DNA of 64,000 bases, from assembly GCF_018977255.1 (NCBI RefSeq), contig NW_024704743.1, positions 16,556,001 through 16,620,000 of the forward strand, in the 5' to 3' direction. This document shows, piece after piece, positions 6,701-63,183 of the stretch. The stretch's first letter is position 1; the number at the start of each line of letters is the position of its first letter. The notes below the pieces were generated by a model. The model did not search any database. It was given only the letters and a program-made list of their open reading frames with translations, and was not told the DNA's origin. Both the position numbers and the translations under genes were made by a program. This stretch comes from Callorhinchus milii. Taxonomy: Eukaryota.

Positions 6701-9700
6701 GTCGTTAAATAAAAACAGTGGCATTCCCACAAAGGTGTGAAGGATTCCTGGTTAACGTAAAAATAATAATAATAATCCTTGCATTTTGATATAGCGCTTT
6801 ATCACATCTTCGAGACGCCTCAACACTCGTCACAGAATACAATGTAAAGTGAATTGACTGTATATTTTGTGGGACTGTACATTTGCATGACTTAGATTCC
6901 TTATTGAGTAATTGAATTAATGAAGGACCGCAAATTAGGGCTTGTTGGGCATGGGCACACCACCAACAACAACAAAGTTACATTTGTATAGCGCCTTTCA
7001 CGTCAGGAGGACGTCCCAAGGCGCTGGACAGACAGAGGTTCGCCACCATTGTGACAAAAACTACACTCTTTTTCCTGTCTCAAGCAGAAGACGATTGCCA
7101 GTGTCTTTTTTTGATGTAAATGGTGCCCTTTCTAAACTACAAAGCGAGCTAGCCTTTGACACCTTCCACAGCACCTCGATAATATAATACAAGATTAAAT
7201 ATTCTCATTCCAACTGATCTGTGGGAGCTCCTGTTCTGGTGGGATAAGTTTTCGGAGCTCTGTTCCCACGGGTCGGAGTGACGTATTGCCAGTTACCAGA
7301 AAGAGTTCACGTTTGCGACTCGTGTTCTTTTTTAAAGCATCGCATCACCAATCGCTACAAGTTGGACCTTGATACACGCAGTACTGTGCCTAGGTGTGGA
7401 GGCCATTCTTGGAATAGATATGGGAGCATTTGAAAGGGTTACAAGAAGAGCAATGGAAATGAGTCCAGATTTTAGAAAAACGATAGGTAGAGGAGACCAT
7501 TGGAACGCAGGTGAGATTAGCTCCATTTAAGGAAATTTAACTCAGGGAATTCCCTGATCCCTAATATAACCGTGTTCCCGACTTACATGAAGAAACTGGC
7601 TCTTTAAAGGCTGTCTCCTGTGGGGGTGGTGGCACAGGTTATAAAAGAGCTGTATTTTTTCCTCTCTGCACACTCTGTGTACCAGAATCATTATTTTGGG
7701 CAAAGCAGTATGCTGCTTCCTCTCAACGTTTATCACATTTGCCCCCATTACACTTGTAAGCTAAGTAAAGAGGACAGATGAACACTCTTGTACAGTGATA
7801 CAGGTATACTTTGAAAATAGTCCAAATGAAAGGAAACAATGCTCTGACTCATTCATTCAGTTATTCAGTCTCGAGCATGGTATATTGATGAATTGACATT
7901 TGTTCTTGTTTTCTAGCTCTGCCATAAGCTGTATGAAATAATGAGTAAACTTGGAGAGCAGCACGCTGACAAGGCATTTACAATTCAAGGAGCACCCAGG
8001 TACTGTGCTACAACTGTAATTAATTGTGCAATGAAACTCACAATATTAACTGCTCATTTTACTTTAACGCACACCACTTGATTGTACAATATCCACTATT
8101 CTCATACAATGGCTGTCCCGTGTCTTGTGCTTTTTATTGGAAAACATAACACCGGAACAAGATGTTTTCTTAAGTTTTCACCCAGCGCATCATGCCTTGT
8201 CCATCAGCTTTATTCAGTCTTGGCTGATCTTTTAAACCAGTGCCTCTCCCTTTCTCTATACCTCTAAATGCAATACATCTTCATGTTTCGCCCACAAAAT
8301 ATAGTCAATTTACTTTACAGTAAATTCTGTGAATCGCTTTGAGACATCTCAATAACATTATAAGACTACGGTATATCAAATGCAAGGATTATTATTATAC
8401 ATATAATACCCAAGTATCTGTCTATGTCTCTTTTAAATGCCTATATTGATCTCACTGCTACAACTTTGTGAGGCAGAGAATTCCACATCTGCACAACCCT
8501 CTAGTGTGTGAAGGACTGCTCACTGACCCCAGCACTAAATTTAAGGCAATTCACGTTCTGTGAGGCTGTCTGCCTTTATATACCCCAGCATTGTCACCTT
8601 TTTGTTCTCATTTATTACAATGCAGGTTTTAATCAAGTCACTTATGCATATCATAATTACTCATAGGAAAACAATCAATATTTAATATTAGATTAATTGT
8701 ACAGTTAGTGCGCAATAGGAGTCTTGTTATTTGGTACATGTACAATCTCATCAGTTTGTGGATGAGATTCTACTGGGGTCTATCATTTGAGGAGCGCTAT
8801 AAATAATCTTTTCATGTTTGACGGAAAATCCCATTATATAGAGTCTGCACCAATAGATGGCTATTTTTAGCAGTCAGTCCACAATAGACCCCATTATCTG
8901 CCAGTGAAGGCAATTTCATTCTGCAACGTGCATGATTGCTCCCCAGTTAATGCCTGCACATGCACAGGATGTATTGCTACTGTTTATTATATAATGTGTA
9001 TGTTTCCAATCAAAGTGCAGGCATCATATCCTACCGCAACTTCCCTCCCCTTGCCCCTATCTCTCATCTAACTCAGCATCTCATTTGAGATATTCTCTCT
9101 ATAAAAAGTCAGAACTAATATAATAATATAAGTGCTATATAAATGCAAATTGTTGATAAATTCATATCCCCTCCCTTGCACAATCCAGTTCTTCATCCTG
9201 GAATTGGGTTAATGATGCCATGGGAAACATTCCACGGATGTTTATTCCCCACTTTTTTCAGCTCACTTGCAGTTCCTATCAGTGCAGCAGCACTGCACTA
9301 CTTTTGTATATTTGCTCCGCTTTTCTGATTCACAAGAAAAACTATTAACGGTACATCTTTTCAGAGAAGGGTTTTAAATCATGAGCTAATTTTAAGAAAA
9401 ACTCTCAGAAAATTGTATTGCAGCATGACAGATAGTGTTCTACAATTAAATATTCTATAAAAGATTAAGAACTGTAACATTTGAAATAGATCGCACTTGG
9501 ACACACAAAATATTGTTACAGACAAGATAATCTATGAATAAAATGTAACAATAAGTGTAGTAATAAAACATTAAAAGTTAAAATCTTCATTCAGAAGCTA
9601 CCAACAAATGATTTGTTGACTCTCGTTCACAATCCTCCTGGGTACTCAGCTTCAAAGTACTTTAGATCCTTTTAAGGTTGTAGTGAGGAAGATTGTTGTT

Positions 9701-12700
9701 TTAAGTTGTTAGTCGATGGATTTAATGAACTGTTTGCTACTGTCTCACACTGTTTGCTGCTACTGCTGACTAGAAGGCGAAGGTAAGATGGAATCTGTGC
9801 TTTAGAGCAGCTAGCACTTGTCATGATTAGCTTTTAGTCAGAGGCATGATTGTGGGAAGGACACCAAATCATGTCCTTTAGTCTTCCCAAAAACGCTTGG
9901 CCACAGACTTCTGTCGTAGATTGTTGACTATACAAATCTTAGATGAAACATATTTCAATGTCAGCTTGATAAATCTTATGAGTATTTAATAGCGCTACTG
10001 CAGACATTAATCTTGTTGTTTTAATTTGAAGTTGTGTGTTTAACTAAATAACCTCCATTATTATTGCTTTTTACTGAGAAGATAATTACATTCATATTAA
10101 TGGGGTCCATTATGTGTGTGTTTCCAAAGGGATTCTTTAATTATAGACACAATATTCTGACTCGTGGGATCTCCACTCTGCTTCAACAACTCTACTTTTG
10201 AAGCTGGGTTTCTGGGGTTGACATGATGTATATGTTGCACTTCCATTAGAAATCATCACATATTACACCCCAGTGTTTGGTTCAAAAGACAAGATTCACT
10301 TCCACCCCTCAGTTTGTGTGTTTCAAAATAGGAGATGTGTCACTTAAAAGATTGATGACATGACTGCCCTTCCTTGGTCTGTTCCATATTTTGTTCTTGT
10401 CACTGTCAATGGATGCAATATAATACAAAATTACATTTGTGAAGTGCCTTTCGCACCAGGAGGACATCCTAAGGTGCTGGGCAGTCAGGGATTTGGACTT
10501 TTTTGGACCCAAGCTGGGGGTCGGATTCAGGGAGGGTGGAGGGCAGGGAGGGTAGAAGGGTGACTGAAGTCTCAGTCGAAGAGGAGGGTTTTGAGACATG
10601 CCTTGAAGGAGGCAAGGGAGGGAACAAGGCGAAGGGAATGTGGAATGGAGTTCCATAGGATGGGAGCAGAAATGCTGAAGGTCTGTCCGCCGATGGCCGG
10701 CCGAGCGGGGAATGTAGGGCAGGCCAGAGCCTGCTGAGTAGAGGGAGCAGACTGGTTGATATGGGGTCAGCAGGTCGCAGAGGTAGGGCGGGCCAAGGCC
10801 ATGGCAGGCCGTGAAGGCAAGGACAAGGTTTTTGAATGCTATCCTCTGGTGGATGAGGAGCCAGTGGAGCCAGACGAGGGTGGGGGCGAAAACCACACAG
10901 TCAAAACCCCTTTATATACACATGACTACATGAATACCTCAACTCAATGTAAATACATCACCATGTAAAGTATATAATAATAATAATAATAATTCTTGCA
11001 TTTGATGTAGCATCTTATCAAGTCATTGAGATATCTCAAAGCGCTTCACAGAATATATTGTAAAGTGATTGAAGGTATTTTGTGGGCGATAGGCCTACGT
11101 GTAAGAACAGTTACTGGTGCTGGGTTGTCGTGTGTCCAGTAAGCTGCTACATCTGCGTGGATGGGACTTGTGATGCAACACTTAATGCCTTAATCTTTTG
11201 ACTACTTCATTCGATAATTCCATAAATCCCAGATGCTCCAGCCTGTGTGCTGTGTTGGCTTGTTGATCCTGGATCCCCTGCAAGGCTGATCACACTATCT
11301 GTGCATAATCCTCCCCTCATAACCACAGCTCCCATGTGACTGTACTGCCGTTCTCTTCTAGTGACTCGGGTCCACTTAGGATTTCCAAGACCCCGACCCC
11401 ACCAGAAGAGGCATCACCAATTGGTAGCCCCGAGGCCAGCCCTAACCACACGCTGGCGCCTGTAGCTGCATCACCAGCTCATAGTCCAGCTCGTCCCAAA
11501 TCCCCATCTCAGGTAAAGTAACCTTCTGTCTGTCAGCAATGCAGAGTCAACAGGATTTACTGTGACTGTCAGTTCCATACACATGTACAGCACAGGCAGC
11601 ATTTACATAGATTGCACAGCATATTTGAAGGAAGTGAAGAAAGAACATGCGGAACGTACTTTGCGCATGTTAAACTACCATCACCTATCTCAAACGTGCT
11701 GGTAACCATGGGCACAGTAACTTACTGAGTATTGCTTCTTACTGTGTCAGTTTCTACAAAGACTCCTTTTATAATTGTTTCCTTTGTTTCTCGTTTCTTT
11801 TCCTCGTTCTGCCCTGGATCCAGCTGAGAAAAGGACCTCCAGTTCCGCCACCTCCAAAACTCACCCCCACAAAGGAGCTGCACCAGGAGAACATTATCAA
11901 CTTTTTCGAGGACAATTTTGTTCCTGAGATCAGCGTAACCAGTCCATCACAGGTCAGCAAACGTCTGGTTACACCCTTTACTTCACTCTTATTGTCGGGT
12001 TCCTTCAACAGCTGATGTTCAGAATGAGGGCAGTCATTGTTTGCCAGCGGACAATTTCAATGATAGACAGTGTAGCCGTTTTCACCGATTTCAGTGTCAG
12101 CTTGGTTCAGTTGTTAGCATTATCGCTCTTAGTCAAAAGGTTGTGAGTTCAAGCCATCATGTCAGGACTTTAAACTCAGAGCCTAGGCTGACTCTCCAAT
12201 ACAATGCTGAGGAAATATCTTTTGGATGTGACTTTAAACCGAGGTCCTGTCTGCCTGATCAGGCAGATGTTAGCGATCCCATGACAGCGGGGGCATTGCT
12301 GTCTGCAAATTGGCCTGCATTTGCCTATAAATACACAGTCACTACTCTTTTGATGTGATCGGCTCTATACCAAATGCATGCATTATTAGTATTAATATAT
12401 GCTGTTTTCTAGTTTATTGCTGGATCTTTATTCATTATTCCTCCCTCAGCCTCTGATTTGAATTGAAGGCATTTTGATTTGTTTTTCATATAATTATTGT
12501 AAAATAGACTTTAGTCCTCCTTGGCTGGCTTTGCCAATTCTAATGATCACTATCTCTCTCGTACAATATACCATTTCCCATGCTGTAGAGTTAGGGCTTC
12601 CTTATGGTGTCTCAATGGAAGGTTGATGTTATGAGTTTTGACTGAAGAGATGAATTGCATTTATTAACACCCAATTATACCGGGTGTATTACCAGTTGTT

Positions 12701-22400: not shown

Positions 22401-25400
22401 GCCCAGTGGTGTCTAATTTGCAACATTTTAATAAGAAATGTGTGATAATCTAATCCTAAAATATCATTTTATCTACCACATCAGATTTTAATTTTGAAAA
22501 CCTTTATTACATTCCTCCTTAATCTTCTTTGCTCCAGAAAAAAATGGTCCCAATTTTTCAAGTGTCACTTGAAGCCTGTAATTTCACTCACAAACTGACT
22601 TTGCTATTACCACAATAACTTCCAGTTTGAGAATATGGCAATCTCAACCTCTGTAAATTGCTCCATATGGTTTTCTCTATGTGTCTGTGTTTTAATGTTT
22701 CTGTTTCTCTTCCTTTTTATCGATTCTCAGACCCTGCCTTGGGATTTGTGGGAGGTAGGAATACTCTTATTTCTCATTTAGAATTCTGTTTATTTTCCAA
22801 TTTAATTTTGTGTTTTTTTTATGAAGTCAGAGATATTTAGCTTGTCAGAAGTGTTCTTCAGAAGAGTTTGTGATGTACTAATTTTGAATGTGACATGCCA
22901 TTATACTGCATTTATATTGGAGGTGTCAACTTGGCTGTCAGAGAAATCCGATTTTTCTAATACAGTAATACACTGAAGGACCCTTCAGACTTGTTGGAGA
23001 GCATTGTGGATTCTAAGCAGTCTGTGATAAATAGGGCCATTATGCAATATAGAGGATCATTTACTGCAGTTTCATTGGGTAGGCGGGGGTGTACATTAAT
23101 GAATTATATGAAGAACATATTAAAAAGTCAAACCAATCAACATGGGCGCAAGCCAGCACAGTAACAAAGTGCTGATCAGCGAGTATTATTAATGTGAAGT
23201 CTGCAGAAACTTTCATTCCTGCCACATTCCTGCTGATATCTAAGCCGGGCGAGCCATTACACCAATATAATGTCAGGTAAGTGACCTGCCTGCTCGCCTT
23301 ATCAGTGAGACTTGAAAAGATAGACCTGTCACTGGGCAACTGGATTCTTCCCGCTCTGATTCCATTAACACTAGAAGCCAATAAGTCCAGTTAGGGTGTT
23401 AGTTATTCAGTTATTCTCTAGACCAGGGAGGTCCAACCTTTTGGATTTCCTATTCGAGAAAGGTCCGCAGACCGCATCTAGCATGGACCAACTGGAGTCC
23501 TGCGGGCCGCATCCGGCCCGAGATCATTTCCAACAATCCAGCTTCCACTCGCTCCCTCCCTGGTGAACGTCCTCTCAGGGCAACGGCAGGAGCCGGCGGT
23601 TGGGAGGATGCAGCGCGGAGAATGGAAATAATACCGTCCGTTACTGCAATCTGTGAGGAAGCCAGAACGTCTCTTTCCAACTGTGTCCTTAGCAACCACC
23701 GGCTCCTGAGGGGGGAGAGAGGGGGGGAGAGAGGTTTGGGGGGGGAGGTGGAGCTTGGAGGTAAGGAGAAGGGTGGAGATGGGGTCGAGGGAGCAGGTGG
23801 TGGGCTTCATTTTTGAAATGATGGAGGTGAGGGAAGAGGAGGAGACAGGTGCGTAGGGAGGAAAGGGTAGGGACCGGGTGTGAAAGGAGGTGGGGAGAGG
23901 GTAGCGGTAGACGGGGAAGAGGTAGCTGAGTGAATCCCCTCGATTTTGGACTTGAGGAAGCCCAACATCTACTCCCAAGCCCCATGGCAGAACTTTGAGC
24001 TCACACTCCAGTGCATTGCTCGAGGAGCACTGCATTGTCGGAGGTGTTGTCCTTTGGATCAGGTGTGAACCTGAAGCCCCATCTGCCTATCCAAGTAAAT
24101 ATGAAAGATTCTATGACACTGTTAGAGGAGAGAAGGGAGAGCTTCCCAGATTGTTGGCCACTAATCCACCAGATAAAATTGGTCATTAACTCTATGGTTG
24201 TTTGTGGGACATTGCTGTGTGAAAATTGGCTGCCTTGTTTGCCTATAAAATAAACATTCACTGCAGTTTACAGTAATTGCCTATGAATTTAGTACCACAT
24301 TAACATTTAAACCTCCACATGCATAGTTTAAAATCGTGTGACTCTTTCACATCCACAAGGGTGTATATTTGACATCCAATTCCTGGTGTGACAATATCAT
24401 TGGCTTCTGTCCTCTTTCCTTGCTATATTTTTTATGATATATTCAAATTCTGAACAATTACGTGTTGGCTGTGAAACAAAAGATATAAAGTGAAAAAACT
24501 ACCTTGCTAAAAACAGAGGGCCCAAAGCCATGCCATACCAATGGGACTGATCCCATCGTGCATATGAAAACAGCGTGGATTTCATGTCGTCACACAAACC
24601 TCAGTGTGCAGCCTTAACCAAAAGCATCTTCCATCAGGAATTATACTGTCACTATAGCACCATGCTATGCTAGCCCTTCTTTCTGTGTGTTTGTATGTGT
24701 GTGACTCTAGCTATTTTACTTTTATCGCTCTTTCTATCTTAGTTTCATTGTGTATCCCTATCGCTTTTTCTCTCTGCTTCTCTGTAACTATTTCAGATTG
24801 CTGAGCAAACTCAATAAATTCCCTGTCAGTAGCACATACATTTGTAAAAATATCCCACCGCTAGTTAAAAGGCCCATTTGCTGAGTATCTGCACAAGCAC
24901 AATTTACGATTCTCTAGGCAAAACCTCAGCACAATGCTATATCTCAATTACATTGGATTTGAACGGATACACAGACATTTAGCTTGTGGATATGGAGCAT
25001 TCATCTGTATTTGTCCAAGGCTAGAGGTTAAATTGCAGGACTGTGAATGCATTTCAAAGCACAGGGAGTTCATGCAAAATTCAATTTCAATTTATTTTCA
25101 AATTTGTTGCAAATTCACTTTAACATCTTGCTGATGGAACACACTCACAGCTCTCTGGAACAGTGTTGGCCTTGGAAATGCTGCCTATACCACATTGCAA
25201 TCACAATCTGCAGGCTTCCAGCCAGCTGAATGGAAAATGGAAAAACAACACTGATAATAGCTTCCTTGTGAATTTTCGCAAGAAAGATATATTAGGAGTG
25301 TTTCAAAATCGCGTTCCAATAGGGGATATTTTATGTTCTGTTCATTATTGAAGGTAATGGACAGTTTTATACACTGTTGAATGCATAGTATATATCGGTT

Positions 25401-28400
25401 GCTAACTATTCAGAGTGCTAATGACTGCATTTTCTTTCACATTCAATTCTCTCTGTCTAAAGGCAAACACTGAACTGGTGCAACCTGTAAGTATATTGCC
25501 CTTGTTTCTTTTACTTTAATATGGTCCTAAATCTAAGGCCTCTTTCCTATGGGATAGAATGATGTATTCCTAGTGGTATAATCTTTCACTTGTACATCCA
25601 TATTTATATTGTATAATTTTATGTTTCTTTTTTGGGGGGCAATTTTCCTGACCCTGATCCTGTCATCCCAAGTGTATCTTCCAGGTGGGTTACAGGATAG
25701 GGATCAGGAGCAGGATGCTTGGCTGATTACCTTCTCCCCTCTACCAATGACTCCAAGGCTAGTTATGGTACTCCAAATTACTTTCCTGGCTGAGATCAGC
25801 ACACATCTGGAAACAAATCTGTAACTTTGCAATCTCTGTGGCTTAATGTTACACTTGTTAGTGCCATTACCACTGGGTCATTGGAGGAAGCTGCTTATAC
25901 GTCCATTTTTATGAGATTATTATTTAGTTCATTTAGATAAAGTTTACGTATGTTTGCTGTTTCTGATTTATTTAGTTCTTCGTTTAATTCATTTTCTACA
26001 GCTAGGATTTCCATAATCTATTTATAACATTAAGACATGTGGGATTTCTACCACGCATTTATTTCCTATAATTTACCTTGAGCTTCTATTTTATTTACCC
26101 TTGGGAAAAACTTGTGTTGATTTATTTTGCTTTTTTTCATCTCTGCTTCTGCTATCTTTTATATCTGTCTTCACTCATTTTCTATCTAAAGCCCGACTCT
26201 TCAAAAAGTCTCTCTCTGTGTAACCTGGCCATGGAGGACAGCGCAGATACTGGCACGGCAGGGGACATTACTAACCCAAACTCTGAAGTAGCTGCCAGCC
26301 AGAACTATACAACGCAGTGGGGGTTAACGGACACTGCCGCACACAGTAACAGCGAGGAAACCACTCTAGATGGTTTTTGCGATGGAGCCCAGCCGTGTGC
26401 TCAGGAACAACTGTCTGCAGGGAGCTGTACTGACCCTTCAGCTGATAGCTTTTCGAAACCTGCAGATGAGGCTGAGGAGGAGGCACAGGGCTCAGTCAAT
26501 GCAGAGAGTTGGCAGGAGAAGCCATTAGACAAACAGGTAGACACCGAAGAAGTTGAGTGCAGGAATCTGCAGATTGAACTGTGTGCAGAACAAGAGCACA
26601 ATCCTGTACTCTCTATTGATGAGAAGGTTTTGGTGGTCCCTAATGAACATGAGGATGAAGCTGTAGAATTAGTTGAAAGTGTTACTGAGTTAGGGCAGAT
26701 AGGAAATGAATGCAATTTCAATCCCCTTGATTCAATTTACCAATCAGTGCTTGAGGTAGTGGACAACACAGGTAAGGGTTGTGAAGCAGAATCCCAGCTA
26801 GTTGAGTGCTCTGGGGGAAATGGTGCAGAAATGGAGGACATGGTCCTTAGCGAGAGCCATCAGGACAGTGGAAGCTATCACAATGATGATACTGCTGATA
26901 GTCGTGAAAAGGATAGACTCCCGTTTCAAAGTAATGACATTTTTGATGGTCAGGAGGAGGTTCTGCAGGAGGCGGAGGAAATCCCTGTTATCCATGGCGA
27001 TGAGGAAAGTCCTGATCACCAAAAGAATGAGGACATTCCTGATTATTTTGGAAATGAGGAACTTCCTGGTAGACAAGAGAAAGAGGAGATTGCTGTCCGG
27101 TCTGAATGTGACAGAAGCCTTGTCAGTTCAGATGCTGAAGCTGATGTTATCCCTCAACACACTGAGGTATACATAGCACATCAGCCTCAGCAAGAGGAAG
27201 AGAAGGAGGAGGAGGAGAGGTGCTTTGAGCCAGTGAACATAGTCAACACAAACAACACTGAAACAGAGAGTAATGTTAACACAAATGATGAAAATAGCCA
27301 ACCCAATGAACCACAATCTGACAAACCCATTGTGGACCGATTACCCACGTTTCACAGAGAAAACTGTGACAGTATTAGATTTGCCCCTCAAAGCGTGGAG
27401 TCAGACCCCTGGAGTGGAGAAAAGATTGAGATATGGCCAGACAACTGGGAGCCTACAGTTAGCAATGATGATTGGGGATTCTCCAACCTACCTGATGGCC
27501 AGACAAATGGACTTGATTGTTGGCCACCATTGCAGGAAGGACAAGGAGAGAGCAGTGACCCTAAGGGAGGTGCAAAAGGAGATTTTTGGCAAGGTTTGGA
27601 GGAGAATGTTGGCTGTTGGCCTCCACAAGATTCCGATGAATTTGGTATTCCATGGGAAGGGACTGTGCTGAGCAAGTTTGGGCAGAATCAGGAAGTACAA
27701 TTAGACCTGCAGTTACGTGGGGAGAATGAAAGCATTAGTGAGACAGAGCAAATCAAAGAGATCAATAGTCCCCAAAGTCCCTATCCAATCGAGAACATAA
27801 GCAACTCTAGCAACGAGAGTGCAACCAGCCCTAAAGATAATGAAACAAACATCTCGGATCTGTCAGAAGATGAAATTGCTAACCGGAGATACGGACTGTT
27901 ATACCAGGAACTAGATGCTGAAAGAGAAGAGGTACCTCATAAAGTGCTTAGTGTAGAAAAAAGTTCTTAGGTATGACTAAATATTATCGTAAAATAACAG
28001 CTCTCGATTCAATCTTTTCCTTCAGCTGTCTGTCTTGTTTTGTTATTGCTCCAAAAGGATATGTTATAATACAATAGCAGAACGTAATGAATGTAGTCTG
28101 TATTCCGTCTGGAATCCTACAGTGTGTGATTGTAACTTGATATTTTACTTCTTTCCACTATTTCCAGATGACTAATGCTGCCTTTAATGGATTCACACAG
28201 GTAAGATATCTTTAACTTGTAATTCAGTCTCCTTAGGTACAGAAGCTACTCCACGCTGCCAGCATAAATTTGATATACTATTTGGATGCTTCACAATTCT
28301 TCTTCTGAATCTGATCAGTCAAATTGGAAGGCACACAATAAAGCACAGAACCCTGTGAAAAATGCTTTCCTCTTCCCCTATACCTGACCATTGTTTTCTA

Positions 28401-46400: not shown

Positions 46401-49400
46401 AGGATATGAAGTCAGATGTGGATCCCAGTGCACAGGAGATGAAACCAGTGGAGGAGGTGAAGCCAGAGCAGGAGGTCAAACCAACACAAGAGGTCAAGCC
46501 GGCCGGAGAAGAGGTCAAGCCGGCCGGAGAAGAGGTCAAGCCGGCCGGAGAAGAGGTCAAGCCGGCCGGAGAAGAGGTCAAGCCGGCCGGAGAAGAGGTC
46601 AAGCCGGCCGGAGAAGAAGTCAAGCCGGCCGGAGAAGAGGTCAAGCCGGCTGGAGAAGAGGTCAAGCAGGATGGACAAAAAGTCAGTGTAGGAGCCCCGA
46701 GCGCTCCTCAGCAGCAAAGTGAGCCTAAAACTGAAGTTGGAGGGGTGCAAGGCATGCCTGCTAATTTTCAGTTTAAGGTAAGTTTTTACCAGTTATCTAT
46801 TTTAGTAGTGTCAGAACACGACCAGAGAACAACCTGAGTTACATTTATGCAAGTCTGTCAAAAATATCACTAAAAACAAAAGGTACTTGGGTTTCCAGCA
46901 AGTTCTAGTTACTTTTTCTATTTTTGCTGCAGATTGAAAATACATGTGTTCACTTATGTTATGGTCCATGGATTAATATCACATTGACCATCACTGAGAG
47001 ATGTTATCTGGTGGCATTTTCTTTCAGGTTAAAGCACTCCATAATTTTGATGCTGCCAGTGAAGATGAGCTTAACATGGAGCCAGGAGACATTGTTCTGG
47101 TGATTCTATCAGACAAAGTAGAAGAGCAGGTAAGCAGAAAACAAGCTCTATTTTTAGGGGGTCAGCCAAGTGTTTGGCACATGCGGAAACCCATCACCAT
47201 GAGTATCCAATCCAAAATAAAAGCTCCATGTATCCCACCTACACATGGAAATTCCAGAGATAGATTGTTCGAATGGAATGGGCACTGGCTCCTTGGAGGA
47301 ATGCTTGCTGCTTACCTAATTCTGGAAAGTATTAGAGCATGCATTGGGGTACTGCCTGAATTTAACCAGCTAAAACCACATAGGTTGCCATTGATATCAC
47401 TATTGGCAAGCTTTCCTGCTGCTTGTCCAGCTAGGAACACCCGACCTTTAGGGCTTTGGCTTGCAGGGATAACAGGAGCTGTGTGGCAGGATTCCTTGCC
47501 CCCAGTGATTGGTCTACTCTTCCAAGTCCTGCCACTGAACCAGTATGTGCGGTTATCAACAGTACCCTGGAATACTGCGGACACAGTCGATCACGCCATC
47601 CTCCACCGCCTTTCCTCCGTCATTCACCTCAGTGGGACCGCACTCGCCTGGTTCGAGTCCTACCTCACAAACCGCCAGCAGTACATCTGCACAAACGACT
47701 TCTCCTCTCGCTCTCACCCGGTCACCTGTGGGGTACCCCAAGGATCCATCCTTGGCCCCCTCCTCTTTCTGATCTACATGCTCCCTCTTGGGGATGTCAT
47801 CCGGAGACATGGGGTACATTTCCACATGTATGCAGATGACACCCAACTCTATTTTTCCACTTCTCTTGATGTTCTGTCAGCCTGCCTGTCAGATCTCAGA
47901 TCTCACTTCTTTCAGCTGAACGTTGACAAGACAGAAGCCATACTCTTTGGCTCTCATCAACATCTAAAATCTCACGGCTCTCATCTTTTCCATCTATCTG
48001 ACCTCCCCCTAAAACTCTCCGAACCCGTACGCAACCTAGGGATCAGGTTCAACCCCCAATTATCCTTCCTCCCCTGCATCCAATTGCCTTTGTTCCTCCG
48101 AGTCTGGCCTCCTCATTATCCCCCGAATCCTCCACTCCACTCTCGGTGGCCATACCTTCAGCCACTATGCCCCGAGGCTCTGGAGCTGCCTTCCTCACTC
48201 CCTTCGTCTCGCTCGCTCCCTTCCCATTCTCATATCTCTGCTGAAGACATTTCTTTTTGACTGCGCTTTTGATCACCTTCCTCCCCATCCTCCTGGCTCG
48301 GCCCCGGGATCCGTTACTGTAAAGCTCTCTGAGATGCCGTCCGGTGTGGCGGGCGCTATATAAATCCAAGTTGTTGTTGTTGTTGACCCACCTGGCTCAA
48401 GATCTACTAAGACCGCCACAGAGCTTGATTCCCACATTCCGTTGCCATCTTACAGCCAGTTCACCTCCAAGTTTAGAGGCTTACCTCCCAACCCAACTTA
48501 CCTCCCAAAACAAGCACGAAACATACCCCTTTATCTTCTCACAGAAATGTTTCTTCACCAAAATCTTCTATCACATTTTCGGTCTTTCTTAAATATAATT
48601 TTCGGACTATATTGAGGATACGTGATTCAAAATCTACAGAATTTAGCGATATCCACTCAAGAGAATTCAGTAATTATACTGTCACAGTAAGGTGACAGTA
48701 TACAGTAAGGTACTGTATACAGTAAAGTCACAGAGGCAAAGTCCATTGTGGGGTTCAGATGGAATTGGACAGGTGTGGAATCCTCTAGCATAGTAGTTAG
48801 CACCCTCGACTCGCAAGCGAGAGAACTTGAGTTTAATTTCTGGGTGGGGCAAAATCTTGGGCAAGTTTCCTTATTCCACATGCCTCTGTTAACCTAGCAG
48901 TACATAGGAACCTGGTTATTAGTCTTTCTTAAATATTATTTTCAGACTATATTGAGAATATGTGATTCAAAATCAACAGAATTTCAAGATTATTATCATT
49001 ATATTATTATTAGTGATTGGTGGATCACTTTCCAGGGTAACAATCCCTTCAAAAAACAATAATAATAATGGTCACTCAATCCACGACTGTTTTTGGGACA
49101 CTGCTGTGCGCAATTGGTTGCTGTGTTTCACCCACAAAATACACTCAATTCATAATATATTCTGTGAAGTGCTTTGAGATGTCTCAATGACGTGATAAGG
49201 CGCTATATCAAATGCATAGGTTATTATTATTAAATAAAGATTAGAGGCTTGAAGGGGTGTGAGGAAATGGAGGGCAGTTGGATTGAAAGTGTAGCTTGCT
49301 CTGAGAGTCGGTGCAGACTCAGTCGGCCGATGGCCTCCTTCTGCCCTGTAAATTTCTAAGATTCTATCATTCCTGTGCACATTAGGAATCACGATTTCAG

Positions 49401-57044: not shown

Positions 57045-58301
57045 TCATGAAGATGCGTCGTGCTTTGGTAAAGGAGCTGCAGTTGGTTCCTTGCTCTCTG
57101 TTAAAGCTCTTGGTTGATGGATAAACACACTGAATTTAACTCCTTGGTTACCTGCGGCTCTAACAAACCCACTGTTTGCAGTCATGGTTATTGCCTTTAA
57201 AGTGTCTCCAGTGCCAAAGATAGTAATAGAACGAGTGTTGATTTTTGCACTAGCTTCCAGCCTCAAGGCATATTCAGAAGGTTGGTCTGGTACAACTGAG
57301 ATTCTCTGGAGCAGTTTCTGTGCTCGGTCCCTCTCCCCCTGTCCACCCAATGTATCTAAAATGGCTTGAAAATCCTTCACTGCTGACTGACACGCAAATA
57401 GTTCCTTACCCTTCATAAAGGCCTGTAGTTTGGGTAACACACTCTCCTCCCTTTCCTGTGCAGCCTGTTCTGTCAACACTTTCTCTTTAAAAATGTAGTC
57501 GCAGCCCCCGTGACTGACAGCCGAAACAAAGGTGATTAAGGTTGTGATATCTAGGTTGACTCTATTACAGAAATCCACCTTAACGTCAGTCGGGAAAGCA
57601 ACGCTGGCGACGATTGTTGAGCGATCGACTTTAGTCACACACAGAGGCTCCTCTAGATCTTCCTCAGAGTCACTCAAATTCTCACCAGCTTCCTCCACCA
57701 GATCCATCATCGAATTCACCGCGACAATATCCCCTCGCACAGAGAGCCCCATTTCCTTCAGTCTGTCTGCCATGGGGCTCGAAACACTGTTGTAAAACGC
57801 AAACACAATGTGCGGATTGCTGTACTGCACCAGCTGCTGTTTGCTGGCCTCCAGGTAGTCTTCCGCTTGCTCTATGATGCTCTTGTCTCCGTACTGCCCT
57901 CTGCCCACCCAGATGCTGTGCAGCGCCTCGGCTTTTCGGCCAATTGCTTTGACCCACGTGTGACCGCTGTTGGCCACCACATCCACCACCAGGCATTGCT
58001 TCTCCCCGGCACGGTCCCGATAGTTGAAGACATGCAGCAAACTGACCACATCGCCCAGGCTCTCGGCAGACTCGATCACCGCCTTCAGGTGGGTGAGGTT
58101 CGTGCTCTGCAGGTGCGATTCCTTCACAGACACCTTACCCAGTTCCACTTTCTGCAGAAACTTGAGCTCTGCCTTCAGTTTGCTGCAGAGTTTGGGACCT
58201 CCCTGCACGCCGTCCTTCCGGGAACAGGCAAGTGCCTCCGCCCTCTCAAGCAGCTGCCGGGCTTCAGCCATTCTCTCCATAAGGATTCGGTGCACCGACA
58301 T
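57045..58301 (-). CDS. C7orf25: UPF0415 protein C7orf25 homologue, 418 aa, single coding exon
   Basis: [14 protein letters not shown]...[17 protein letters not shown]...[15 protein letters not shown]...[10 protein letters not shown]...[13 protein letters not shown] recognisable as C7orf25. ATG in ctcaccATG context; splice acceptor ttcttccag 15 nt upstream (exon starts 58316). Confidence 0.94.
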
Positions 58302-58359
58302 GGTGAGATCATCACCCTGGAAGAAGCTATGGGTTGGAAGGAAAGAGACAGCGAAAGTC

Positions 58360-58585
58360 ATCATTCTCACTCACTCTATCTGGTGCCTGTCTCACTCTCT
58401 CTCTGGTACGTATATCGCTCTCTTTCTCTCTGGGGCCTTTCTCACTCTGCATCTCTCTCACTCTTTCTCTGGTGCCCATTTCACTCTCTTTCTCTTGTGC
58501 CTGTGTCTCACCAACCTGAACCTCTGGTGCCTATTACACTCTGTCTCTTTCTCTGGAGCCTGTCCCACCCTCTCTGGCTCTGGGG

Positions 58586-58621
<36 letters not shown>

Positions 58622-59928
58622 GGGCCTGTCTCTCTCTCTCTCAAGGCCTGTCCAACTCTCTCTCTCTCTCTCTGGGGCCTGTCTCACTCTCTCTCTCTGG
58701 GGCCTGTCTCACTCTCTCTATCTCTGGGGCCTGTCTCACTCTCTCTCTCTCTGGGGCCTGTCTCACTCTCTCTCTCTCTGGGGCCTGTCTCACTCTCTCC
58801 TCTCTCTCTTCTGGGCCTGTCTCACTCTCTCTCTCTCTGGGGCCTGTCTCACTCTCTCTCTCTCTGGGGCCTGTCTCACTCTCTCTCTCTCTGGGGCCTG
58901 TCTCTCTCTCTCTCTCTCTCTGGGGCCTGTCTCTCTCTCTCTCTGGGGCCTGTCTCACTCTCTCTCTCTGGGGCTTCTCTCTCTCTCTCTCTCTCTCTGG
59001 GGTCTCTCTCTCCCTCTGGGGCCTCTCTCTCTCTCTGGGGCCTCTCTCTCTCTCTGGGGCCTCTCTCTCTCTCTCTCTCTGGGGCCTCTCTCTCTCTCTC
59101 TCTCTCTGGGGCCTGTCTCTCTCTCTCTCTCTCTCTCTGGGGCCTGTCTCTCTCTCTCTCTCTCTGGGGCCTGTCTCACTCTCTCTCTCTCTCTGGGGCC
59201 TCTCTCTCTCTCTCTCTCTGGGGCCTTTCTCGCTCTCTCTCTCTCTCTCTCTGGGGCCTGTCTCACTCTCTCTCTTTCTCTCTCTCTCTCTCTTTGGCCT
59301 CTCTCTCTCTCTCTCTGGGGCCTCTCTCTCTTTCTGGGGTCTCTCGCTCTCTCTGGGGCCTGTCTCACTCTCTCTCTCTCTCTTTGGCCTCTCTCTCTCT
59401 CTCTCTTTCTGGGGCTTCTCTCTCTCTCTCTGGGGTCTCTCTCTCTCTCTGGGGCCTGTTTCTCTCTCTCTCTCAGGGGCCTGTCTCTCTCTCTCTCTCT
59501 GGGGCCTGTCTCTCTCTCTCTCTCTGGGGCCTCTCTCTCTCTCTCTCTCTCTCTGGGGCCTCTCTCTCTCTCTCTCTCTCTGGGGTCTCTCTCTCCCTCT
59601 GGGACCTCTCTCTCTCTCTCTCTCTCTCTGGGGCCTGTCTCTCTCGCTCTCTCTGGAGCCTGTCTCTCTCTCTCTCTCTTTCTGGGGCCTCTCTCTCTCT
59701 CTCTCTGGGGCCTCTCTCTCTCTCTCTCTGGAGCCTGTCTCTCTCTCTCTCTCTTTCTGGGGCCTCTCTCTCTCTCTCTCTCTGGGGCCTCTCTCTCTCT
59801 CTCTCTCTCTCTCTGGGGCCTGTCTCTCTCTCTCTCTGGGGCCTGTCTCACTCTCTCTCTCTCTCTCTGGGGCCTCTCTCTCTCTCTCTGGGGCCTTTCT
59901 CACTCTCTCTCTCTCTCTCTCTCTGGGG

Positions 59929-59959
<31 letters not shown>

Positions 59960-62051
59960 GGGGCCTGTCTCACTCTCTCTGGGGCCTGTCTCACTCTCTC
60001 TCTCTTTGGCCTCTCTCTCTCTCTCTCTCTGGGGCCTGTCTCACTCTCTCTCTCTCTTTGGCCTCTCTCTCTCTCTCTCTCTGGGTCCTCTCTCTCTCTC
60101 TCCCTCTCTGGGGCCGCTCTCTCTCTCTCTCTCTCTGGGGCCTCCCTCTCTCTCCCTCTCTGGGGACTGTCTCTCTCTCTCTCTGGGGCCTGTCTCTCTC
60201 TCTCTCTGGGGTGCTCTCTCTCTCTCTCTCTCTCTGGGGCCTGTCTCTCTCTCTCTCTCTCTCTGGGGCCTCTCTCTCTCTCTCTCTCTCTCTGGGACCT
60301 CTCTCTCTCTCTCTGGGGCCTGTCTCACTCTCTCTCTCTGGGGCCTGTCTCACTCTCTCTCTCTCTCTGGGGCCTCTCCCTCTCTCTCCCTCTCTGGGGA
60401 CTGTCTCTCTCTCTCTCTCTCTGGGGCCTCTCTCTCTCTCTCTCTCTGGGGCCTCTCTCTCTCTCTCTCTCTCTCTGGGGCCTCTCTCTCTTTCTGGGGC
60501 CTGTCTCTCTCTCTCTCTGGGGCCTCTCTCTCTCTCTCCCTTTCTGGGGCCTGTCTCTCTCTCTCTCTCTGGGGCCTCCCTCTCTCTCCCTCTCTGGGGA
60601 CTGTCTCTCTCTCTCTCTCTCTGGGGCCTGTCTCTCTCTCTCTCTCTCTGGGGCCTCTCTCTCTGGGGCCTCTCTCTCTCTCTGGGGCCTGTCTCTCACT
60701 ATCTCTCTCTGGGGCCTCTCTCTCTCTCTCTGGGGCCTCTCTCTCTCTCTCTGGGGTCTCTCTCTCTCTGGGGCCTCTCTCTCTCTCTGGGGCCTCTCTC
60801 TCTCTCTCTGGGGCCTGTCTCTCTCTCTCTCTCTCTGGGGCCTCTCTCTCTCTCTCCCTTTCTGGGGACTGTCTCTCTCTCTCTCTCTCTGGGGCCTCTC
60901 TCTCTCTCTGGGGACTGTCTCTCTCTCTCTCTCTCTGGGGCCTCTCTCTCTCTCTCTGGGGACTGTCTCTCTCTCTCTCTCTCTGGGGCCTCTCTCTCTC
61001 TCTCTCCCTTTCTGGGGCCTGTTTCTCTCTCTCTCTGGGGCCTCTCTCTCTCTCTCCCTCTCTGGGGACTGTCTCTCTCTGGGGCCTGTCTCACTCTCTC
61101 TCTCTCTGGGGCCTGTCTCACTCTCTCTCTCTGGGGCCTCTCTCTCTCTCTCTCTGGGGCCTCTCTCTCTCTCTGGGGCCTGTCTCTCTCTCTCTCTCTC
61201 TCTGGGGCCTCTCTCTCTCTCCTTTTCTGGGGACTGTCTCTCTCTCTCTCTCTCTGGGGCCCCTCTCTCTCTCTCTGGGGACTGTCTCTCTCTCTCTCTC
61301 TCTGGGGCCTCTCTCTCTCTCTCTGGGGCCTGTCTCTCTCTCTCTCTCTCTGGGGCCTCTCTTCTCTCTCTGGGGCTCTTCCCTTTCTGGGGCCTGTCTT
61401 CTCTCTCTCTCTCTGGGGCCTCTCTCTCTCTCTCTCTTCCTCTGGGGCCTCTCCCTCCTCTCTCTCTCTCTGGGGCCTCTCCTCTCTCTTCTCTCTCTGG
61501 GGCCTCTCTCTCTCTCTCTGGGGCCTCTTCTCTCTCTCTCTCTCTCTCTGGGGCCTCTCTCTCTCTCTCCCTTTCTGGGGTCTCTCTCTCTCTCTCTCTC
61601 TCTCTGGGGCCTCTCCCTCTCTCTCTCTGCGCCGTCTCTCTCTCTCTCTCCTGGGGGCCTCTGTCTCTCTCTCTCTCTCTCTCTGGGCCTCTCCTCTCTC
61701 TCTCTCGGGGCCTCTCTCTCTCTCTCTCTGGGCCTCTCTCTCTCTCTCTCTCTGGGGCCTCTCCCTCTCTCTCTCTCTGGGGCCTCTCCCTCTCTCTCTG
61801 GGGCCTCTCTCTCTCTCTCTCTGGGGCCTCTCCCTCTCTCTCTCTCTGGGGCCTCTCCCTCTCTCTCTCTGGGGCTCTCTTCTCTCTCCTCTCTCTCTCC
61901 CTTTCTGGGGACTGTCTCTCTCTCTCCTCTCTGGGGCCTTCTCTCTCTCTCTCTCTGGGGCCTCTCTCTCTCTCTGGGGCCTGGGGCTCTCTCCTCTCTC
62001 TCTCTCTGGGCCTCCCTCTCTCTCTCTCTCCCTCTCTGGGGCTCTCTCTCT

Positions 62052-62090
<39 letters not shown>

Positions 62091-62157
62091 GCTCTCCCTC
62101 TCTCTCTCTCTCGGGCTCTCCCTCTCTCTCTCTCGGCCTCTCTCTCTCTCTCTCTGG
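58360..62157. repeat. Compound microsatellite: (CT)n tracts separated by GGGGCC(TGT) units, about 3.8 kb
   Basis: Directly visible; explains the spurious long LS/RE ORFs. Confidence 0.97.
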
Positions 62158-62187
62158 NNNNNNNNNNNNNNNNNNNNNNNNNNNNNN
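62158..62187. other. Assembly gap (30 N)
   Basis: Run of n. Confidence 0.99.
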
Positions 62188-62258
62188 GAGTATCATCCGT
62201 ATTAAGGAGCATCAACGTTAACTGAATATAGTGACGCAGCTATCGTAAGAGTACTAAG

Positions 62259-63183
62259 CCCTCCAGCACACACCCAGCACAGCCCCCCCCCACGCACACA
62301 CACCCAGGCACAGCCCCCAGCCACCACACCCCACACAGCCCCCAGCACTCACCAGCACACCCCCCAGCAAAACACCCAGCACAGCCCCACCAGCACACAC
62401 CCAGCACAGCCCCCCCCAGCACAGCACCCCCAGCACAGCCCCAGCACACACCCAGCACAGCCCCCAGCACCCCAGCACAGCCCCCCAGCACACACCCTAC
62501 ACAGCCCCCCAGCACACACCCAGCACAGCCCCCCAGCACACACCCAGCACAGCCCCAGCACAGCACCCCCAGCACACACCCAGCACAGCCCCAGCACAGC
62601 ACCCCCAGCACAGCCCCCCCCAGCACAGCCCCCCAGCACACACCCAGCACAGCCCCCCAGCACACACCCAGCACAGCCCCCCAGCACACACCCAGCACAG
62701 CCCCCCCAGCACACACCCAGCACAGCCCCCCCAGCCACACCACCCAGCACACCCCCCCCAGTACAGCCCACACCCCAGCACAGCCCCCCCCAGCACACAC
62801 CCAGCACACCCCCCACCACAGCCACAGCCCCCAGCACACCCCCAGCACAGCCCCCCAGCACACACCCAGCACAGCCCCCCCAGCACACACCCAGCACAGC
62901 CCCCCAGCACACACCCAGCACAGCCCCACCAGCACAGCCCCCCCCCAGCACAGCCCCCCCAGCACACACCCAGCACAGCCCCACCAGCACACACCCAGCA
63001 CACACAGCCCCCAGCACACCCAGCACAGCCCCCCCAGCACACACCCAGCACAGCCACACACACCCAGCACAACCCCCCCAGCACACACCCAGCACAGCCC
63101 CCCCAGCACACACCCAGCGTAGCCCCCCCAGCACACACCCAGCACCCTCCCAGCAACTCCAACACAGCCCCCCCCCCCCCCCC
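62259..63183. repeat. C/A-rich minisatellite, unit about CCCAGCACACACCCAGCACAGCCC
   Basis: Directly visible degenerate tandem array. Confidence 0.95.

Follow-up and report, generated by a model that had tools for sequence, protein, structure and literature searches.

The stretch of Callorhinchus milii (elephant shark) DNA analysed here, called the window below, is 64,000 nt long and carries the amphiphysin 1 gene (AMPH) on the + strand, the exons of which were mapped one by one. The exon at 11363–11512 is 100% identical to a C. milii amphiphysin database protein, which identifies AMPH as the host gene. The feature studied is a 9-nt microexon inside a phase-2 intron of 3362 nt (Table 1). The exon preceding this intron is 83 nt in elephant shark and mouse alike, and the exon following it is only 139 nt in mouse, a 12-nt difference due to a four-residue indel in the aligned proteins. 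Inclusion of the microexon keeps the reading frame and gives ...GAPRRRSDSG..., compared with ...GAPSDSG... for skipping, and its length falls within the 3–27 nt range of retina-enriched microexons (RetMICs). An earlier note on this DNA had described such an exon, preceded by AG, followed by GTAAGA and encoding GAP-RRR-SD in a phase-2 intron, and the mapping reproduces it exactly at 9774–9782; the TGC motifs it gave upstream, and the four TAG and one GCATG downstream, are all at their places. The same note put the insert directly after the BAR domain, which is right as to order and approximate as to distance, the domain ending at residue 232 by Pfam and at residue 243 in the solved human fragment, and the insert coming after Pro250.

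Table 1. Features of AMPH in the window, with positions counted from its first nucleotide
Feature	Position	Strand	Description
Upstream AMPH exon	7917..7999	+	83 nt; ends in phase 2 (Pro250 + AG); supported by RNA contigs
3′ splice region	9713..9773	+	59-nt AG-free zone; weak pyrimidine tract with 4 TGC; TAG acceptor
Microexon	9774..9782	+	9 nt, AAGGCGAAG; TAG acceptor before, GTAAGA donor after
5′ splice site	9783..9788	+	AAG/GTAAGA; strong, 6/7 scored consensus positions
Four-TAG cluster	9803..9837	+	TAG at 9803, 9812, 9828 and 9835; candidate Musashi sites
GCATG (RBFOX-like)	9844..9848	+	single copy; GGCATG, not TGCATG
Downstream AMPH exon	11362..11512	+	151 nt; completes Ser codon (Ser251 = rodent Ser250)
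Large acidic AMPH cassette exon	26192..27931	+	1740 nt, 580 aa, 24% D+E; predicted boundaries (DNA only)

Elsewhere in the window, a coding 21-nt tandem repeat at 46488–46667 (+; 8.6 copies, 98% match) encodes EEVKPAG repeats, the copy number of which varies between C. milii protein records. An ORF without introns at 57045–58370 (−) follows AMPH in the opposite orientation; it encodes DUF5614 and DUF1308 domains, and we take it to be a C7orf25-type gene. Long CT/GGGGC and CCAGCACAC satellite arrays occupy 58539–63173, with an N gap near 62190.

Splice signals and transcripts of the elephant shark intron

The four TGC motifs of the 3′ splice region start at 9735, 9755, 9758 and 9764, and the branch-like CTCAC with its A at 9747 is a putative branch point by consensus. 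With UGC between this putative branch point and the AG, a long AG-free zone and a strong donor, the site has the cis layout of SRRM3/4-type exons, and the UGC placement described in bioRxiv 10.1101/2024.09.17.613571 agrees with that upstream of 9774. Shortly downstream of the donor, the UAG cluster is that of Musashi-type exons; TAG is absent from the first 70 nt that follow the 7999 and the 11512 donor. Relative to the first 57 kb of the window, four TAG per 70 nt occur in 1.3% of windows, four TGC per 40 nt in 0.46% and one GCATG per 70 nt in 4.8%, and a 59-nt AG-free zone precedes 2.0% of AGs; these frequencies are descriptive only, because the test windows were picked after the motifs had been seen. 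The loose pattern YAG-(3n)-GTRAG has 42 occurrences on the + strand, and a donor score of at least 6/7 together with an AG-free zone of at least 20 nt leaves three candidates on the + and one on the − strand. Among those four short frame-preserving candidates, 9774 alone carries both the TGC and the TAG clusters. Because the pyrimidine tract is weak and the exon is only 9 nt, the elephant shark exon would be skipped by default.

Several other signals were considered around the exon. The GCATG was rejected as a splicing signal, given its frequency in the window and an orthologue that lacks brain inclusion, and it is probably incidental. A recursive splice site (AG/GTAAGA) was dropped, as the intron is short and the 9-nt exon is documented in orthologues. 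The RNA fold of 9700–9870 is no better than that of shuffled sequence (z 0.35), and therefore no structural mechanism is proposed. A tandem AAG acceptor 3 nt on could give a 6-nt form, 9777–9782 (P-RR-S).

Four of the 12 listed sequencing runs were mapped to 7800–12000, of which three are RNA-like and one is DNA-like; none is recorded as RNA and the tissue is unrecorded. Contig data drop rare forms, and contig stretches lacking coverage were left out of the evidence. The skip joint 7999/11362 (GT..AG) is present in the contigs of all three RNA-like runs and absent from the DNA-like run, and the next exon joint is likewise present in the three RNA-like runs. The inclusion joint is absent among the joints listed for these three runs, which are of unrecorded tissue and assembled into contigs that drop rare forms. 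Moreover, the three-residue insert is absent from all fetched C. milii AMPH proteins covering the junction. The nine letters of the microexon are unchanged in the DNA-like run X4 (piece 9130–10410) and in run X1 (piece 9770–10170).

In X1, the deepest of the RNA-like runs, the intronic contig starts 4 nt before the microexon, and the approximately 550 nt upstream have sparse cover. This is one contig and its start could be chance, or it might reflect splicing intermediates.

Retinal use in mammals and counterparts in other vertebrates

The supplement of PMC9303857 lists a 9-nt human AMPH exon, HsaEX1003606, with PSI 54.86 in retina, 0.13 in neural and 0.01 in other tissues, and a mouse exon, MmuEX0004822, with PSI 41.51, 0 and 0; in that file AMPH occurs twice, in a human and a mouse row, with no chicken or zebrafish row. 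Both exons lie in the same gene and the same intron as the elephant shark exon, are 9 nt long and frame-preserving, and encode an insert that begins with Arg. The mouse exon (chr13:19101902-19101910, upstream exon 83 nt; PMC4991804 supplement) has 10, 10, 10 and 5 inclusion reads in wild-type retina and 0, 0, 0 and 0 in the photoreceptor-less Aipl1-/- retina, with PSI of 0.115–0.175 in four wild-type and 0 in four photoreceptor-less retinas (PMC4991804). The PMC9509328 supplement lists it among the exons with reduced inclusion upon Msi1/Msi2 knockout: its inclusion reads fall from 47, 46, 49 and 54 to 1, 0, 0 and 0, and its PSI from 0.25–0.31 (about 0.27) to 0–0.004 (about 0.001); the list also contains the long Amph exon further downstream. 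Upon ectopic expression in HEK293, by comparison, dPSI of the human exon was 0 with MSI1, 0 with SRRM3 and 1.84 with SRRM4, one further SRRM4 line gave 0, and the remaining five SRRM experiments are given as NA (PMC9303857). In vivo the mammalian exon thus depends on Musashi and is confined to photoreceptors, but single factors are insufficient in cell lines.

Retinal and neural PSI, the loss with photoreceptors and the Msi1/Msi2 knockout together bear on the neural and photoreceptor splicing foreseen in the earlier note: the photoreceptor part and Musashi dependence therefore hold, and the neural part does not. Sufficiency of SRRM3/4 is not borne out in the three measured SRRM experiments. 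Synergy of MSI and SRRM3 is a hypothesis raised in PMC9303857 and PMC10987577. For the elephant shark exon, orthologues and motifs suggest that MSI1/2 would act on the downstream UAG cluster to give inclusion in part of the photoreceptor transcripts, and that SRRM3, acting via the upstream UGCs, is probably a co-factor, insufficient alone.

Among the fetched proteins, 298 AMPH junctions were resolved by pattern, 257 of them skipping, 40 with a three-residue insert and one odd; the odd junction, RHMRR in one protein, was kept out of the 40, and proteins that the pattern left unassigned lie outside the 298. Insert carriers are predicted isoforms and the second search used an insert-bearing query, so the fraction 40/298 carries no meaning, whereas the occurrence in both sharks and mammals does. 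The insert-bearing isoforms come from two shark and 12 mammal species, and read RSW-S in the small-spotted catshark (Scyliorhinus canicula, 11 junctions), RRW-S in the whitespotted bamboo shark (Chiloscyllium plagiosum, 6 junctions), RMR-C in six primates (11 junctions), RTR-C in three cats (9 junctions), RAR-C in rat and galago (2 junctions) and RRR-C in the jaguarundi (1 junction). The two sharks have the insert at the same junction and of the same length as the elephant shark, with Ser retained after it, but with Trp as the third residue where the elephant shark has Arg; elephant shark R-R-R is followed by Ser, whereas R-x-R in the mammalian database isoforms is followed by Cys. Because the inserts read in these different ways across species, the polybasic RRR is not conserved, contrary to what had been supposed. 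The insert is absent in every amphibian, reptile and teleost AMPH protein fetched, and the part of the zebrafish microexon supplement of PMC12626420 that was searched gave no match.

In human, mouse and elephant shark alike a 9-nt frame-preserving exon lies between homologous flanking exons, and the elephant shark exon shares the upstream UGC and downstream UAG layout typical of RetMICs. As a whole, these data are very probably best explained by 9774–9782 being the elephant shark orthologue of the amphiphysin 1 photoreceptor microexon. Because the elephant shark copy would be the counterpart of the human and mouse exon, the exon appears to be very old, and the proposal of a deeply conserved retinal microexon stands, with inserts in sharks and mammals and with retinal inclusion in human and mouse. 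Its apparent conservation across jawed vertebrates rests on protein isoforms. The human and mouse exons are already catalogued, and the elephant shark copy is a further species and no new kind of element.

The large acidic exon is equivalent to the long retinal AMPH insert. Like the Musashi-dependent long mouse exon it lies between exons of 24 and 33 nt; it has three TAG within 70 nt of its donor, and its product is 43–46% identical to long shark AMPH isoforms. The C-terminal end of this product matches peptides found in human retina (PMC11450717). Its translation has no Pfam match, and none of the three full-length C. milii isoforms examined contains the exon, whereas shark isoforms do. Amphiphysin Ir, the retina-specific amphiphysin I, reportedly has a tripeptide plus a long insert; the tripeptide comes after the BAR domain and the long acidic insert further on, and both are encoded in this window. 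Both inserts have diverged in sequence; a rat AMPH protein carries both the tripeptide and the long insert. According to the review PMC11536687, which cites amphiphysin Ir, fast endocytosis at ribbon synapses involves the retinal AMPH variant. The microexon likely accompanies the large acidic exon in the retinal isoform used at these synapses. Two very short AMPH exons in the CLAP region (+), at 25463–25486 (24 nt) and 22728–22754 (about 27 nt), are present in database isoforms.

The Ser250 codon and the effect on the protein

The Ser equivalent to rodent residue 250 has its codon interrupted by the intron. A rat AMPH phosphopeptide with pSer250 is present as one row, in the skip isoform, of a nerve-terminal data set (PMC6415872 supplement), and a second data set, the PMC7995663 supplement, holds no match for pSer250. 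In cartilaginous fishes inclusion places an Arg three residues before this Ser (R-x-x-S), and in mammals Cys takes the place of the Ser, while an Arg comes to lie three residues before the next Ser. An R-x-x-S context favours basophilic kinases. We tentatively suggest that the insert, by adding one to three Arg within the Ser250 codon, could be a local tuner of charge and phosphorylation in the linker beside the BAR domain and not a lipid-binding module. Such tuning would serve endocytosis at ribbon synapses.

The exon may instead be photoreceptor-specific but near-neutral in the protein, as three extra residues that a disordered linker tolerates. This rival has to be taken seriously, because mice can dispense with five other photoreceptor exons, the deletion of which gave no ERG or histology phenotype (PMC9509328). 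Moreover, the insert residues are variable, and inclusion is partial, with PSI of about 0.15–0.55 in whole retina. However, a 9-nt exon occupies one slot in chimaera, sharks and mammals, with splice signals intact in the elephant shark, which suggests selection, and we regard near-neutrality as somewhat unlikely.

Cryptic splicing and the relation to BIN1

A cryptic exon, arisen by chance or decayed and now left out of the transcript, or a 6-nt exon made via the second acceptor, would agree with the tandem TAG-AAG acceptor, with the inclusion joint missing among those listed for the RNA-like runs and with the fetched C. milii isoforms, none of which has the insert. Nevertheless, 9774 outscores every other short candidate in the 3.4-kb intron, its length is exactly orthologous, it encodes R-x-R like the mammalian inserts and both motif clusters are intact, and such an origin is improbable.

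The orthologous photoreceptor microexon also has a structural parallel in BIN1. AMPH GAP/SD and BIN1 AQP/SD align, and the tetrapod BIN1 PI exon enters at exactly the same point; the earlier note had put the BIN1 exon at the equivalent junction, and the intron position and phase of the two genes, once compared, are both identical. The homologous elephant shark exon ends in phase 2 in BIN1 (80 nt) and BIN2 (83 nt) as in AMPH, and therefore the intron predates the three paralogues. BIN1 exon 11 and the AMPH microexon are thus both cassettes that add basic residues, and they lie in homologous phase-2 introns downstream of the BAR domain. However, exon 11 is a muscle exon of 15 residues, with 7–9 K/R per 15-residue window in three tetrapod proteins, whereas the photoreceptor insert has three variable residues with one to three Arg, far from a conserved K/R-rich stretch of about 15 residues, and there is no alignable sequence. 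The first Arg is their one likeness, and it is shared because AG plus a purine at a phase-2 codon forces Arg.

The searches in cartilaginous fishes yielded no counterpart of BIN1 exon 11. Of 99 chondrichthyan BIN1 proteins (skip-isoform query, cluster representatives), none exceeds 4 K/R per 15 residues; tblastn searches with two PI-containing proteins, like the splice-site scans, gave no PI-like exon in the BIN1 intron (1.9 kb) of the elephant shark, and the scans turned up no PI-like or micro cassette at a donor score of at least 5. One 39-nt candidate in that intron was set aside, with a donor score of only 4 and a non-basic product. At the same junction, Heptranchias BIN1 has a 17-residue non-polybasic insert in four predicted isoforms, which may stem from an error of gene prediction or from a cassette that has diverged. 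In elephant shark BIN2 the exon after the homologous intron opens with S-K-R-R-S, a constitutive basic patch, with a possible second acceptor 6 nt on.

It had been proposed that the microexon is homologous to BIN1 exon 11, though much shortened, and acts as a polybasic phosphoinositide-binding patch. This is very unlikely: the identical insertion point and intron phase, the RRR of the elephant shark and one cat, and the binding of PI(4,5)P2 and PI4P by BIN1 exon 11 (PMC5039012) speak for it, but against it stand the forced Arg, the lack of a PI exon in the chondrichthyan BIN1 sequences searched, the one or two Arg of the other AMPH inserts, and the difference in tissue and regulators, muscle versus photoreceptor. 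The AMPH microexon and the BIN1 PI exon share an ancestral intron slot, and their common descent appears unsupported by the sequences compared. It is a speculative and rather improbable extension that one ancestral basic cassette from before the vertebrate genome duplications, or a reused slot, gave rise to the BIN1 muscle PI exon, the AMPH photoreceptor microexon and the constitutive KRRS of BIN2, with the AMPH copy becoming a splicing-encoded Ser250 phosphosite switch that would tune ribbon-synapse endocytosis.

The role suggested by the insert series and the Ser250 overlap was not found stated in the literature searched, and other papers or supplements could already state the Ser250 overlap or the conservation in sharks. 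Reading 9774–9782 as the orthologous photoreceptor microexon, one catalogued photoreceptor microexon with a Musashi-type cis code dates back to the jawed-vertebrate ancestor, and two exons are added that the fetched elephant shark AMPH models lack. Moreover, the insert series (RRR-S, RRW-S, RSW-S and RxR-C), together with the overlap with phospho-Ser250, gives a concrete and testable idea of what this exon may do.
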